Shown here one piece after another: positions 3,053 to 23,775 of a DNA stretch of 64,000 nucleotides. The position numbers were made by a program, and so were the translations under genes. Every line of letters begins with the position of its first letter. Within the stretch, counting starts at the first letter, position 1. Below the pieces are notes generated by a model, which had not been told where the DNA came from, made no database searches, and was given only the letters and a program-made list of their open reading frames with translations. The stretch comes from a virus (lineage: Duplodnaviria > Caudoviricetes): IMG/VR virus record IMGVR_UViG_3300007754_000852. One strand, written 5' to 3'.

Positions 3053-3559
3053 CTACCAGCGATACATGAGCGCCGTGTTCGGCAAGGGCATGATGCCGAA
3101 CCCGTCAGAACCGTATCTGAATCCGAGGGGTAGCTCGAACCTGAATAGCATGTTGTCCCAGAACGTGACTTGCATCCCGACACCTGGACCTGTCACCGCG
3201 CCCCAACCCTCATCGGTCGTTTCCTCGCAGTCGTCAGATTTCGTGTCCTCGTTCCACACGCACTCCTCATACGTGTCACGCCAGAACCCACCGGCGAGGC
3301 CAAGCGAGCCGTATAGCCCGACCTTTCCGTTCTCGTGGAAGTTTCTCTTTAGGTTCACCCCACCAAAAACTCGACCGCCATCGCTCTCGTCCCATACCGG
3401 TAATCCGGTTATCTGGTAACCCCACACGTCATTGTCATGTGAATATGATAGGCCGATACCATAGGTCCCACCCGCTGCAAATCCTAAGCTATTTGTCGTT
3501 TCCGCGTTAGCGGGTGTCACTAGAAGTAATCCAGCGAGAATTGTTATCATCTTAATCAT
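3053..3559 (-). CDS. Secreted outer-membrane beta-barrel-like protein
   Basis: Signal peptide ending ANA, Gly/aromatic-rich alternating strands, terminal YRW aromatic signature. Confidence 0.6.
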   Translation of the reverse strand: MIKMITILAGLLLVTPANAETTNSLGFAAGGTYGIGLSYSHDNDVWGYQITGLPVWDESDGGRVFGGVNLKRNFHENGKVGLYGSLGLAGGFWRDTYEECVWNEDTKSDDCEETTDEGWGAVTGPGVGMQVTFWDNMLFRFELPLGFRYGSDGFGIMPLPNTALMYRW

Positions 3560-3592
3560 TCGTGTTCTCCTTATGAACGATCCTCACATTAT

Positions 3593-3850
3593 CTACAGCG
3601 CGGGTATCAGCGTAAAACAATCTGTGTGTAACCACTTCAGCTCGCCCTCGAATAGCACCTCGTGGTGCCAGTGGGTGATCGCGTTACCTTTCATGTCGAA
3701 CATCCTGGAGTGAAGAACGTATCGTGAGTTTATCTCGATCAGATTGACACCTCGGTCGACAGGCTTAAACGTGTCGATGAACATCGCGACGCCTATGTCG
3801 TCACCATCCTGATCAATGATGCGAACCAGGTCACCCTCCTCTCTCATCAT
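3593..3850 (-). CDS. MKxGDLV-family small protein
   Basis: MMREEGDLVRI...VLFEGELKWLH. Confidence 0.7.
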   Translation of the reverse strand: MMREEGDLVRIIDQDGDDIGVAMFIDTFKPVDRGVNLIEINSRYVLHSRMFDMKGNAITHWHHEVLFEGELKWLHTDCFTLIPAL

Positions 3851-5257: not shown

Positions 5258-5523
5258 GAGATCACCTCGCTTGTTTCTCTCACGTAATCCTCATATGCCA
5301 GGCCTGACGACCTGTAATCGCTGTAGAACTCATTTCTCGTGCAGAAGGGAACATCATCATCCTCATCCCAGTACTCGTCATTGAACTCTCCGTATGAGAG
5401 AACGTGCTTGTCTGAGTTACCGTGACAGTGATCACACATGTTCCACGAGTGGCTGATTCTGAACTCCACGTTTCTCTCTGTTCCACAGATCCTGCAATAC
5501 ATGATACCTCCTATGTGTTTCAT
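5254..5523 (-). CDS. Small zinc-finger protein
   Basis: CRIC...CDHC. Confidence 0.65.
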   Translation of the reverse strand: MKHIGGIMYCRICGTERNVEFRISHSWNMCDHCHGNSDKHVLSYGEFNDEYWDEDDDVPFCTRNEFYSDYRSSGLAYEDYVRETSEVIS

Positions 5524-5729
5524 TATACCTTATCCCCAGCAGGGTTACACGAAATAATCCTGTCAGGAACACGGACGATCTCTGTCCTCTCAACCTCGTG
5601 GACACCCTCATCACCGAACGACACGACATACGACGTGACATCATGCCTGACGATCACCTCAACGATGATGCCGAACGGCGGCGGGCGGTCAACCAATCCG
5701 ATGTACTGAACCAGGTCACCCTTCGTCAT
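5523..5729 (-). CDS. MKxGDLV-family small protein
   Basis: MTKGDLVQY...GIIVEV. Confidence 0.75.
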   Translation of the reverse strand: MTKGDLVQYIGLVDRPPPFGIIVEVIVRHDVTSYVVSFGDEGVHEVERTEIVRVPDRIISCNPAGDKV

Positions 5730-19076: not shown

Positions 19077-19480
19077 TCTTTTTCGTTAAATTTCATCCAG
19101 CCGCACGGAATAAATACAGATTCGACATCTTTAATATTATGTCTTACTGGTTTAAAGTCACTATCAACTGAAACGATTATGATGTTTTCAATTATTAAAA
19201 AATCACTATTGTTTTCAATGTTTGTGACCTTTGCTTCGAGAGACAACGATGACGAACCTATATTTTTAACTCCGATCCTGACTTCTAGCATGTTATCTTT
19301 TCTTACGGGATTAACAATGTCAATTTTTGAAATATGCTTTATTAGACATTTTAATCCAGACATCGATTCGGCATGTTTTATGAGTTCATCATATATCCAG
19401 GTAAAAAATACATCACTTTTAAGAAGTCCACTTTTGTCAAGATCTTCCTGCCTTACAAGTCTTTTTATGTTGTATTTCAC
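19073..19480 (-). CDS. Hotdog-fold acyl-CoA thioesterase-like protein
   Basis: LVRQEDLDKSG...IDIVNPV...IGSSSL...VSVDSDFKPV. Confidence 0.75.
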   Translation of the reverse strand: MKYNIKRLVRQEDLDKSGLLKSDVFFTWIYDELIKHAESMSGLKCLIKHISKIDIVNPVRKDNMLEVRIGVKNIGSSSLSLEAKVTNIENNSDFLIIENIIIVSVDSDFKPVRHNIKDVESVFIPCGWMKFNEKE

Positions 19481-19736
19481 AGTTTTTTGATGCCTTTATT
19501 CTTTCAAGCTTTTGAGATCTGTTAAGTTTTTTAAATTTACACTCTTCTTTTAGTGCAATAGATCGTGACTCAAACTGAGCCCACCAAATTAACATAACTG
19601 GTCTTCTTGACCTCGTATACTTTGCACCTCTCTTTGACTCATTGTGCTCTTTAACTCTACGAGAGACATCTGTTGTAATTCCCGTATACAATGTGTCATC
19701 TGAACATGACACAACATATACAAACCACGGTTTCAC
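19437..19736 (-). CDS. GIY-YIG nuclease (UPF0213-like)
   Basis: VYVVSCSDDTLYTGITTDVSRRVKEHN...GAKYTR. Confidence 0.92.
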   Translation of the reverse strand: MKPWFVYVVSCSDDTLYTGITTDVSRRVKEHNESKRGAKYTRSRRPVMLIWWAQFESRSIALKEECKFKKLNRSQKLERIKASKNCEIQHKKTCKAGRS

Positions 19737-22105: not shown

Positions 22106-22193
22106 TGGCAGTGAGGGTGGGATTCGAACCCACGGTGCCTTACAACACTCAGGTTTTCAAGACCTGCGCCTTAAGCCTCTCGGCCACCTCACT
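22106..22193 (-). tRNA. tRNA-Ser(UGA)
   Basis: AGTGAGG/CCTCACT acceptor, G73-CCA, CAGGT-CTTGAAA-ACCTG anticodon arm, long V-arm, TTCGAAT T-loop. Confidence 0.95.
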
Positions 22194-22198
22194 AGTTG

Positions 22199-22265
22199 TG
22201 GAGCCTCCGGTCAGATTCGAACTGAGAACTGGCCGCGGAGATTCTAACCACTGAATTAAGTGCCC
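22199..22265 (-). pseudogene. Chimeric anticodon-less tRNA remnant
   Basis: 5' GGGCACT plus intact D-arm, only 14 nt to the T-arm (canonical about 23), 3' acceptor CGGAGGC-T-CCA does not pair with GGGCACT. Confidence 0.75.
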
Positions 22266-22271
22266 TGAGAA

Positions 22272-22358
22272 TGGAGCTCAGAGTGGGATTCAAACCCACG
22301 ACGTACTTTCGTATCAGGATTACAAAACCTGTTCCTTCGATCACTCGGACATCTGAGC
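22272..22358 (-). tRNA. tRNA-Thr(UGU) with non-canonical long variable arm
   Basis: GCTCAGA/TCTGAGC acceptor, U73-CCA, anticodon loop TTTGTAA, V-arm TAC-GAAA-GTA, T-loop TTTGAAT. Confidence 0.75.
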
Positions 22359-23105
22359 ATTAAAATTTTTATACTTACTATAGCCTCTCCTGAAGCAATG
22401 TTCATCATAAAATTCTGGCATCAATCGTCTCAATCGCCTGCCTGTAACTTGAGAAACTTCGCCAAAACGTTCGCTAAGCTTTTCTACCCACCCAAACTTT
22501 GAAAAATCAATTTCTCCAGATTCGTGTAAATCTTTTACTTTCTCTACGAACTTCTTATTAAACTCTTCTTTCAATTCTTTCAAGGTCGATCTTTCTTTCT
22601 GATATTTTTCAAAATCCTTGTTTCCTTTTCGAATTCTAGCTGACGTTTTCTTGTTGCTTTTCCTGCCCCAGTTTCGAAAATTTGAAGTTAGTGCATGACA
22701 ATTTGGACACAAAACCCTGAGATTATCTTTTGAATTATTCTTATGATTTCCATCAATGTGATCGATCTCTAGTATTGAACTTCCACACTTTCTCGTTTTA
22801 TCAAACCCACACTCTGAACATTTGAAATTTACTTCTTGGATCAAAATATTTCTTTTAATGGCCCATCCCACTTCGTTCCATGATCTTTTGCAGAATCGAT
22901 TATGAGCTGCTCGCGCCCTGTGTGTATCAAACTGTCTACTACACTCATCACATTTATGATTTCCTAGCGCGTTTAAATCTCTACGCCTTTGTATTTTTCG
23001 ATTTTTTGATCCTTCTCCATTACAAGCTACTATATGCTTACTAATATTATTAGCACTAAAATAGTCATTGCACAACTCGCAGTGTTTCATTTTGTTTGCT
23101 GACAT
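22341..23105 (-). mobile_element. HNH endonuclease (putative homing endonuclease) with zinc-finger motifs, inside the tRNA cluster
   Basis: CSECG...LEIDHIDGNHKNNSKDNLRVLCPNCHA; CELC and CDEC fingers; 3' end overlaps tRNA-Thr. Confidence 0.92.
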
Positions 23106-23155
23106 ACATATCTATTATATAGACAATTCGAACTTTTGTTTAGGATAAGATAAAG

Positions 23156-23182
23156 TGCAATAGGCCACTATGCGACGGAGGC
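23156..23182 (-). pseudogene. Orphan 5' half of a tRNA (probably Thr)
   Basis: GCCTCCG-TC-GCAT-AGTGGCCTA-TTGC-A; acceptor strand is 7/7 complementary to CGGAGGC in the 3' half at 22199-22232. Confidence 0.75.
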
Positions 23183-23218
23183 AATAAGTAAAAGAACGAA
23201 AAGAACGAGCTGTCTAAC

Positions 23219-23635
23219 TTACGAGAGCGTGGTCTCGGTGATCTCAACCCTGAAGGTTGTCTCATTGATATACTCTGGCTCCCACAGCTCATCAGCGTGG
23301 CACTGAAAGAACATCACGAGATCACTCAGGCACGGCTCACCGTCAGCGTGGAGGTCAGCCCACTCAATCCCTGCATTGATCCGAGCAGGGATGTCACACC
23401 ACATGTCCTCCTCATTCCAGCTGTCATAGAGGTACATCTTTGTATACTCCTTTACAAGACAACGCTCAGCGTCCTCGCGGCTCTTGAACGTGCCGACAAC
23501 GTTAGAGTATGTCTCAGCACGCTTGTAACAGTCGATCTCATCGAATTTTGTCACGGTATACACCGTCTCAACGGCGTCTTCCACCTCAACATTATCTGTT
23601 TCCTCTGCTGTATTTTTAAACCTAACTGTGATCAT
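23219..23635 (-). CDS. Hypothetical protein
   Basis: 138-aa ORF with GGGAG SD, visibly higher GC than flanks. Confidence 0.65.
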   Translation of the reverse strand: MITVRFKNTAEETDNVEVEDAVETVYTVTKFDEIDCYKRAETYSNVVGTFKSREDAERCLVKEYTKMYLYDSWNEEDMWCDIPARINAGIEWADLHADGEPCLSDLVMFFQCHADELWEPEYINETTFRVEITETTLS

Positions 23636-23671
23636 ACTATTTCTCCCTTATGTTGTTTTGATAGCAAAATT

Positions 23672-23756
23672 TGGTAGGCACGGTAGGACTCGAACCTACA
23701 TGCACCAATTACCCTAGTTTTATGCACGGTATATAAGACCGCTGGGATACGTGCCC
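23672..23756 (-). ncRNA. D-armless tRNA-like RNA with UAU anticodon loop
   Basis: GGGCACG/CGTGCCT acceptor, A73-CCA, perfect T-arm, GCGGT-CTTATAT-ACCGT arm, only 5 nt in place of the D-arm, 26-nt extra arm. Confidence 0.75.
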
Positions 23757-23775
23757 AAATAATTCATCTATGTCA

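Follow-up and report, generated by a model that had tools for sequence, protein, structure and literature searches.

Layout of the locus

The DNA analysed here (the window) is a stretch of 64,000 nucleotides (nt) from an uncultured marine jumbo phage of the Caudoviricetes (IMG/VR record IMGVR_UViG_3300007754_000852), and the locus in question is a transfer RNA (tRNA) cluster at positions 22106–23635, in which the two ends of a tRNA-Thr gene, here called A, lie on either side of a gene for an HNH endonuclease. All genes of the locus are on the minus strand and read, from 5′ to 3′, an open reading frame (ORF) of 138 amino acids (aa), the 5′ remnant of A, an A+T-rich flank, the HNH gene, a tRNA-Thr(UGU) called Thr-II, a 67-nt tRNA-like stretch, and a tRNA-Ser(UGA) (Table 1). 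The same arrangement with an identical HNH protein is found in 15 metagenome contigs. Contigs of a second study span the junction between the 5′ remnant and the HNH gene as well as the tRNA chimera at the right end, with zero differences across the HNH gene and the 5′ remnant. In three runs of the probable source study, contigs carry the locus in one piece, and no HNH-less form was found in these runs.

Table 1. Features of the rearranged tRNA locus, in window coordinates
Feature	Position	Strand	Remarks
138-aa ORFan	23219..23635	-	directly upstream of the 5′ remnant
5′ remnant of long-armed tRNA-Thr A (probable class), positions 1–27	23156..23182	-	supported by its sequence and by alignment to long Thr(UGU) genes
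Conserved left flank of the HNH gene	23106..23155	-	decayed anticodon/variable region, T-loop-like AGTTCGAAT, promoter-like site
Free-standing HNH endonuclease gene	22341..23105	-	254 aa, or 249 aa from the ATG at 23090
Intact 87-nt tRNA-Thr(UGU), Thr-II, with long variable arm	22272..22358	-	passenger of the cassette; ARAGORN/Rfam
tRNA-Met(CAU) body Y, positions 1–64	22211..22265	-	9 nt of the anticodon loop deleted between 22236 and 22235
3′ remnant of tRNA-Thr A: C65, CGGAGGC, U73, CCA	22199..22210	-	fused to Y
Intact tRNA-Ser(UGA)	22106..22193	-	right border of the rearranged block

The two pieces of a tRNA-Thr gene

The original prediction, made from the letters of the window, placed a tRNA 5′ half with a GCCTCCG acceptor strand and a D-arm just upstream of the HNH gene, and this is confirmed. 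The 5′ piece reads GCCTCCG-TC-GCAT-AGTGGCCTA-TTGC-A (23182–23156), and its D-arm comprises three Watson–Crick pairs and one U–U pair, with A14 and GG in the loop. It is clearly tRNA-like over positions 1–27 only; after position 27 the piece is decayed, reading CTTTATCTTATCC, from which no stem forms. The 3′ end consists of CGGAGGC (22209–22203), T (22202) and CCA (22201–22199), and its acceptor strand is complementary at 7/7 positions to GCCTCCG (23182–23176), 973 nt away. GCCTCCG is found once per strand of the window, and a complementary 7-mer with U8 and a D-arm after it would arise by chance within 1 kb upstream with a probability of about 6e-4. The predicted pairing of the two ends thus stands; the description of the 3′ piece as a half does not, because the share of the Thr gene is limited to the last 12 nt (22210–22199), and a tRNA-Met(CAU) accounts for the sequence up to position 64, T-loop and both T-stem strands included. 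The Rfam tRNA model gives the halves no score, and the 3′ end has no exact match in the viral contigs searched.

An anticodon of the form NGU could not be read for A, as no anticodon arm is left in either piece, and the isotype has therefore to be deduced from the rest of the molecule. Its acceptor is of the Thr type (G1:C72, C2:G71, U73 and an encoded CCA). A gapped search for GCCTCCG...CGGAGGCTCC among viral contigs retrieved 118 stretches, mostly chance matches, and the real tRNAs among them are nearly all tRNA-Thr with the anticodon UGU or CGU. When 690 ARAGORN tRNAs from all fetched loci were ranked by similarity to the two pieces, 16 of the nearest 25 were Thr, headed by an 84-nt long-armed Thr(UGU) of the contig L137. 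Over positions 1–27 the 5′ piece aligns with the long Thr(UGU) family, sharing U8–C9 and the D-arm pattern NCAT-AGNGGNCNA-TTGN, and the 3′ end fits the family tail GTCAG-TTCGAAT-CTGAC-...GGC-T-CCA. A degenerate search of JGI metagenomes yielded one contig, L215, with an intact 85-nt Thr(UGU) that starts GCCTCCG-TC-CCAT-AGAGGTCGA-TTGG and ends TGGAGGC-T. The pair 10:25 is G10:C25 in the window piece versus C10:G25 in L215, a compensatory change, which suggests that A was once functional. Together, these comparisons bear out the predicted Thr type of the pieces and indicate that A was most probably a long-armed tRNA-Thr(UGU) that has lost its anticodon.

The family of tRNA-Thr(UGU) genes with a long variable arm (84–87 nt) is conserved over unrelated phage contigs and has at least two D-arm subtypes (L137:2721–2804, L139:3003–3087, L198, L210:4814–4900, L212:1055–1141, L215:5228–5312 and window 22272–22358); an HNH gene of the family described below lies just upstream in all but L215. 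To our knowledge, long variable arms in bacteria are otherwise limited to the tRNAs for Leu, Ser, Tyr and Sec.

A tRNA-Met(CAU) body fused to the end of A

The 67-nt tRNA-like stretch (22265–22199) begins 6 nt past Thr-II and is called by neither ARAGORN nor Rfam. It has GGGCACT and a good D-arm, 13 nt in the place of the anticodon arm, a T-arm and the CGGAGGC-T-CCA end, and its own acceptor strands are unpaired. A search with its 5′ part, Y, found two IMG/VR contigs, L213 and L214, that hold an intact 75-nt tRNA-Met(CAU); in species-representative genomes, Y had no match. From position 1 through ...CTCAGTTCGAATCTGA, Y is this tRNA-Met(CAU) except for one substitution and a clean 9-nt deletion that takes out the anticodon loop and is flanked by CG/CG; the 9 nt are present, as an insertion relative to Y, in an L213-like contig. 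Divergence from the Met gene starts exactly after TTCGAATCTGA, where the Met gene reads G-AGTGCCC-A-CC and the window reads C-CGGAGGC-T-CCA. The switch from Met to Thr hence falls between positions 64 and 65, inside the T-arm, which accounts for the C49–C65 mismatch in the chimera. The 5′ part of another tRNA that had been noted between the halves is thus the body of a tRNA-Met(CAU), and a companion note by the same reader, which read this stretch as a chimera with a 9-nt loss and a T-arm crossover, proved right on both counts against L213 and L214.

Directly upstream of the tRNA-Met(CAU) in L213 (5750–5835) and L214 lies a D-armless tRNA-like gene with 89.5% identity to one with a UAU loop at 23676–23774 of the window, and a version with a CAU loop lies upstream of the HNH gene in L011 (640–722) and L212 (247–329). 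This conservation argues that the D-armless gene is a real, recurring RNA gene rather than a one-off.

The HNH gene, its left flank and Thr-II

The protein encoded between the two pieces matches the Pfam HNH family at 23.5 bits (cut-off 21.4) and several PHROG HNH families (best E 1e-17). It carries CxxC pairs, the motif EIDHIDGNH...N...CPNCH and a conserved C-terminal domain, and D115, H116, N128, H137, C96, C99, C133 and C136 are invariant across 19 aligned homologues (494 homologues were found), i.e., the HNH (beta-beta-alpha-metal) motif is present with its zinc-binding cysteines. The gene is free-standing in the tRNA cluster, with tRNAs on both sides and no match to an intron model. Its closest relatives in cultured phages are ORFs of T4-like coliphages (27–30% identity over 67–86% of the protein); one of them, a distant homologue in ACG-C40 annotated as "similar to T5 TflIV", lies 6 nt before the first tRNA of an array.

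As had been predicted, an intact tRNA-Thr(UGU) of atypical form overlaps the stop region of the HNH gene. The stop codon TGA (22343–22341) is inside Thr-II, the first 17 nt of which overlap the end of the ORF, and Thr-II scores 51 bits in Rfam.

Upstream, the HNH gene is preceded by a left flank of ~50 nt, which is A+T-rich and contains a sigma-70-like promoter (TAAACA, 17 nt, TATAAT; 23142–23114). The flank also holds one copy of a 9-nt direct repeat, AGTTCGAAT (23134–23126), the other copy of which (22223–22215) is the T-loop of the chimera, so that these are the two T-loop-like sites of the locus. A motif TTGGAACTnTnGGTTCGAATTACC..TATTTA upstream of the HNH start is common to L210, L212/L011, L131 and L132 and occurs in a diverged form in the window; it looks like a decayed variable region, T-stem and T-loop. 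An assignment of this T-loop-like motif to the end of the 5′ remnant was considered and rejected, as HNH loci that have no 5′ remnant share it. In L215, the sequence directly upstream of the intact long Thr(UGU) (5313–5436) contains a left-flank-like motif (GGAGTTCGATGTTATTTAAT) and no HNH ORF, which may be the footprint of an HNH loss.

Linkage of the HNH gene to tRNA-Thr(UGU) and sister loci

Relatives of the HNH gene were surveyed at 86 loci from IMG/VR and the fetched contigs. In 66 of them, the start of a tRNA falls between −45 and +150 nt relative to the HNH stop, often with the stop codon inside the tRNA, and most of the HNH ORFs end inside a tRNA gene or a few nt from one (offsets −38 to +40; L010, L011, L130–L212). 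Every relative with at least 58% identity whose contig runs past the HNH stop is followed by a tRNA-Thr(UGU) (L010/L011, L130, L210, L212, L137/138 and L141). These loci are unrelated in gene context, and the HNH gene and the tRNA-Thr(UGU) behave as a linked unit. Other HNH sub-clades precede Met(CAU), Gln and other tRNAs, and one large sub-clade sits between tRNA-Ile(UAU) and tRNA-Met(CAU).

Three of these loci resemble the window in having a broken tRNA beside the HNH gene. In L137/138, a 5′ remnant GCCACCT-TA-GCTC-AGCTGGTA-GAGC... is followed by the HNH gene, a long Thr(UGU) and a Lys(UUU)-like tRNA with the 5′ strand GGGACTG and the 3′ strand AGGTGGC, of which the latter is the complement of the upstream remnant; Rfam matches this last tRNA over model positions 8–63 only. 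In L202, a tRNA-Ile(UAU) is cut in the anticodon loop by a more distant HNH gene together with a tRNA-Arg(CCU), with TTATAA at both junctions. L210 has the same left flank as the window, an HNH protein with 60% aa identity and, directly after it, a close homologue of Thr-II, all in quite different surroundings, i.e., between a tRNA-Gln and a tRNA-Gly. Directly before this cassette stands a class I Thr-like 5′ remnant unlike that of the window (GCCCCTG-TA-GCTC-AGTTGGCCA-GAGC-A-ATCGC-CTT...). Its candidate 3′ partner, CAGGGGC at 5684, is 1.5 kb away, with five called tRNAs between and the T-arm register off by one, so that L210 would be a weaker third sister case.

Perfect remnant pairs flank the HNH gene at 3 of 61 distinct HNH loci (the window, L137/138 and L202), compared with 0.1 expected from shuffled acceptors. 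The 5′ remnants vary between loci and the left flank is shared, which indicates that the remnants belong to the targets and the left flank to the cassette. Searches for uninterrupted alleles of L137 and L202 returned those contigs alone.

Two other arrangements were observed among the relatives. L153 and L154 carry two tRNA-Arg(UCG) genes with the same acceptor (2772–2850 and 3568–3644), one directly after the HNH gene and the other 0.8 kb further on, and the related L158 and L160 carry the distal one only; this looks like a nuclease-linked duplication. In L131 (~3060–3190) and L133 (~3070–3200), the C-terminus of the HNH protein is encoded by tRNA-like DNA, as the ORF extends over most of a sequence resembling tRNA-Ser(UGA), which is not among the ARAGORN calls.

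A homing-type cassette as the probable origin of the split

The locus is best read as a recombination scar, in which a cassette composed of the conserved left flank, the free-standing homing-type HNH gene and its own functional long-armed tRNA-Thr(UGU) split A and left the two ends as dead remnants; we put the probability of this reading at roughly 70%. The original prediction had a mobile HNH cassette with its own, presumably cleavage-resistant Thr tRNA replace the anticodon region of the resident Thr gene. The cassette gains support from the comparative evidence, whereas the right breakpoint is not in the anticodon region but in the T-arm.

In a mixed infection, the HNH enzyme would break the tRNA gene of a phage that lacks the HNH gene, and repair of the break would copy from the HNH-bearing genome, with crossovers falling inside tRNA sequence because the flanking genes are not homologous. 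The simplest route would be one gene-conversion event with two crossovers between a recipient with the order ...138-aa gene, A, Ser... and a donor with the order ...left flank, HNH, Thr-II, Met(CAU).... The left crossover would lie past position 27 of A, close to the anticodon arm, and the right one where the T-loop of the donor Met(CAU) (AGTTCGAATCTGA) matches that of A; the T-loop of Thr-II (GGTTTGAATCCC) matches it less well and would have been skipped. The expected product is the 5′ piece of A, the left flank, the HNH gene, Thr-II, and positions 1–64 of Met fused to the last 12 nt of A, with A and the Met tRNA lost and Thr decoding kept by the passenger tRNA. The Met part would have lost the 9 nt of its anticodon loop either afterwards or beforehand. 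The left junctions near the anticodon loop in L137, L210 and L202, along with the CG/CG-flanked loop deletion in Met, hint at cutting there.

As the HNH ORF ends inside Thr-II, RNase P processing of this tRNA would remove the stop codon of the HNH mRNA and limit nuclease expression, in line with a proposal for T4 segB in which tRNA maturation cuts the mRNA at the stop codon (PMC2330249; PMC13096335). The overlap between the HNH ORF and a tRNA is kept across the family and would fit segB-like control of expression.

Several observations weigh against this origin. No relative was found that lacks the HNH gene and has an intact Thr gene flanked by the same neighbours, and the event may therefore have occurred in a donor genome and then been inherited or imported whole. 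The left junctions of the sister cases are near the anticodon loop and the right ones in T-arms, two kinds of place that one cut site fails to explain. The T-loop alone cannot be the nuclease target, given that the tRNA-Ser of the phage itself is intact although it carries GTTCGAATC. The arrangement is fixed, being identical in the 15 contigs and the same in the second study, with no sign of ongoing mobility. In L213 and L214, an Ile-like tRNA directly adjoins the tRNA-Met(CAU), which permits an Ile–Met ancestral order.

A search of cultured phages for near-identical DNA gave no match. The neighbouring SpoU gene, used as a probe, found a single distant viral contig (L001), which is not syntenic, and the downstream 161-aa gene has many homologues, but their upstream context differs (L003–L005). 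The upstream 138-aa gene, which has no homologue except itself among 5.8 billion proteins, gives no access to an HNH-less syntenic allele. Two joints that could have represented an uninterrupted form were dismissed. The joint of 22266 to 23673 (run X5) comes from an L213-like phage, in which the sequence shared with the window is confined to two tRNAs, and the joint of 22139 to 23155 (X1) has a 22-nt side and resembles a foreign tRNA-Ser(GCU).

A further proposal, which we hold tentatively and consider rather doubtful, is that this HNH family is a portable "replacement-homing" element, which would cut tRNA-Thr genes of other phages, use tRNA sequence as its sole homology arms and bring a functional Thr tRNA with it. 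Such an element could enter genomes that share no flanking genes, and the loss of the target would be offset by the carried Thr tRNA rather than by splicing, as with introns and inteins. The carried tRNA, often of the unusual long-armed class, might also be immune to the nuclease or resistant to host defence.

Alternative explanations

Recombination without homing is an unlikely alternative, in which ordinary homologous or illegitimate exchange among the similar tRNA genes of arrays, between or within phage genomes, made the junctions. The HNH gene would then be a mere neighbour, or the 5′ remnant would have come with the cassette and the 3′ end from another Thr gene with the same acceptor. 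The crossover does lie in the most conserved tRNA segment, and 105 orphan T-arm/acceptor pieces that ARAGORN does not call are present near these HNH genes in the 86 sequences scanned. The Thr-like 5′ remnant of L210, fused to the same left flank, also suggests that a remnant could ride with the cassette. However, the 5′ remnants vary in sequence and class among the window, L210 and L137 whereas the left flank is shared, which fits remnants that derive from the target, and exchange without homing leaves unexplained the excess of split pairs around the HNH gene given above. Moreover, nucleases of this kind have been tied experimentally to this type of exchange (PMC2330249; PMC13096335).

A variant concerns the starting order: an Ile-like tRNA followed by Met, as in L213, with a 1.4-kb block inserted between the two, is possible as an ancestral arrangement. 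This route would need more crossovers than that from the order 138-aa gene, A, Ser, and L213 says little about the locus because it shares only two tRNAs with the window.

The suggestion that the halves still work, pairing by their 7-bp acceptor stem in one transcript that is processed and perhaps ligated by the RtcB of the phage, is very improbable: although the acceptor complementarity is perfect with all Thr-type determinants in place, RtcB is encoded at 1749–2966 and the arrangement is stable in two studies, both pieces lack an anticodon stem-loop and so would their joined product, the 12-nt Thr-derived 3′ part is covalently attached to a Met-derived body with an acceptor strand of its own that does not pair with this 3′ part, the pieces are separated by an intact Thr(UGU), and RtcB fits general tRNA repair. 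The cofolding gain of the pieces (−10.1 kcal/mol vs. −6.7 ± 2.9 for shuffled sequences) is within ~1.5 standard deviations and rests on the acceptor and the TTCGAA palindrome. Beyond the 7-bp acceptor there is no complementarity and no additional helix of the kind present in archaeal split tRNAs, and group I/II intron models (Rfam, E up to 10) found no match in the 1-kb stretch, L202 or L137.

Relation to known systems

Homing nucleases in tRNA clusters are known from T4 and T5 (e.g., T5 F-Tfl). The T4 nuclease SegB recognises a conserved T-loop motif in tRNA genes, where it cuts, and spreads along with neighbouring tRNA genes, with nearly 100% inheritance in crosses (PMC2330249), and it drives recombination-dependent rearrangement of the tRNA array via short homologies (PMC13096335). 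The locus described here shares with SegB a free-standing nuclease gene in a phage tRNA array whose ORF end abuts a tRNA gene. However, SegB has the GIY-YIG fold rather than HNH, it showed no isotype preference whereas the close relatives of the window HNH are tied to tRNA-Thr(UGU), and there is no report for SegB of a target tRNA gene whose halves flank the insert together with a passenger tRNA of matching isotype.

The TflIV-like HNH genes of coliphages such as ACG-C40 belong to the HNH family and likewise lie in a tRNA cluster directly upstream of a tRNA, with similarity over the HNH and C-terminal parts. In contrast to the window gene, with which their identity is low, they precede a tRNA-Leu at the head of an array that is intact in other respects, and no split tRNA was observed beside them.

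A selfish nuclease gene between the halves of a once-continuous gene is also found in nrdA of Aeromonas phage Aeh1, split by mobE, and in the "fractured genes" with split inteins (PMC2677866). The halves of those genes still work, through a protein complex or trans-splicing, whereas here they would be dead and the replacement gene of the insert would keep the function. The split tRNA genes of Nanoarchaeum equitans and the group I introns in anticodon loops of bacterial tRNAs similarly set the 5′ and 3′ parts of a tRNA apart in the DNA, but their parts complete a cloverleaf and carry joining signals or a ribozyme. In the window, the pieces make no complete cloverleaf and have no extra pairing sequences of the Nanoarchaeum type, the anticodon arm is absent, no such joining signals or intron fold were found, and, unlike a group I intron, the DNA between the pieces contains one complete tRNA and a portion of a second. 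The kind of element is thus already known, and what is new is the recurring layout of a split target plus a replacement, together with the tie to the long-armed tRNA-Thr.

Homing nucleases of phage tRNA clusters have recently been shown to reshape arrays and thereby beat host defences that target tRNA. The locus and its sister cases would show, for uncultured marine phages, what such activity leaves behind when a nuclease-plus-tRNA unit lands in a tRNA gene of the same isotype, kills the target and its neighbour and substitutes its own copy. Events of this kind would account for part of the tRNA fragments and uncallable tRNA-like genes in phage arrays, which calls for caution with exotic readings as split or minimal tRNAs. 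They also connect the long-armed tRNA-Thr(UGU), an unusual class, with a mobile element and make tRNA-Thr genes a candidate target for an uncharacterised HNH clade.

Observations on neighbouring sequences

The 138-aa ORF lies between an Ile-like tRNA and the 5′ remnant and has a G+C content of 47–51%, compared with ~36% regionally; it may be a recent acquisition inside the same inserted block.

A 1.4-kb contig from the same sample series, L002, is 99.4% identical to the window downstream of 22745. Its first 107 nt (L002:1–107, compared with the window from 22745 upward) are unrelated to the window and stand in place of the N-terminal half of the HNH protein, including the catalytic DH, so that L002 is an assembly chimera or else reflects a decayed form of the HNH gene within the population.

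About 2.6 kb downstream of the locus, a 99-aa ORF on the minus strand (window ~19437–19736, located via L006:9355–9654) has a GIY-YIG domain and is possibly another homing-nuclease remnant near the tRNA region.

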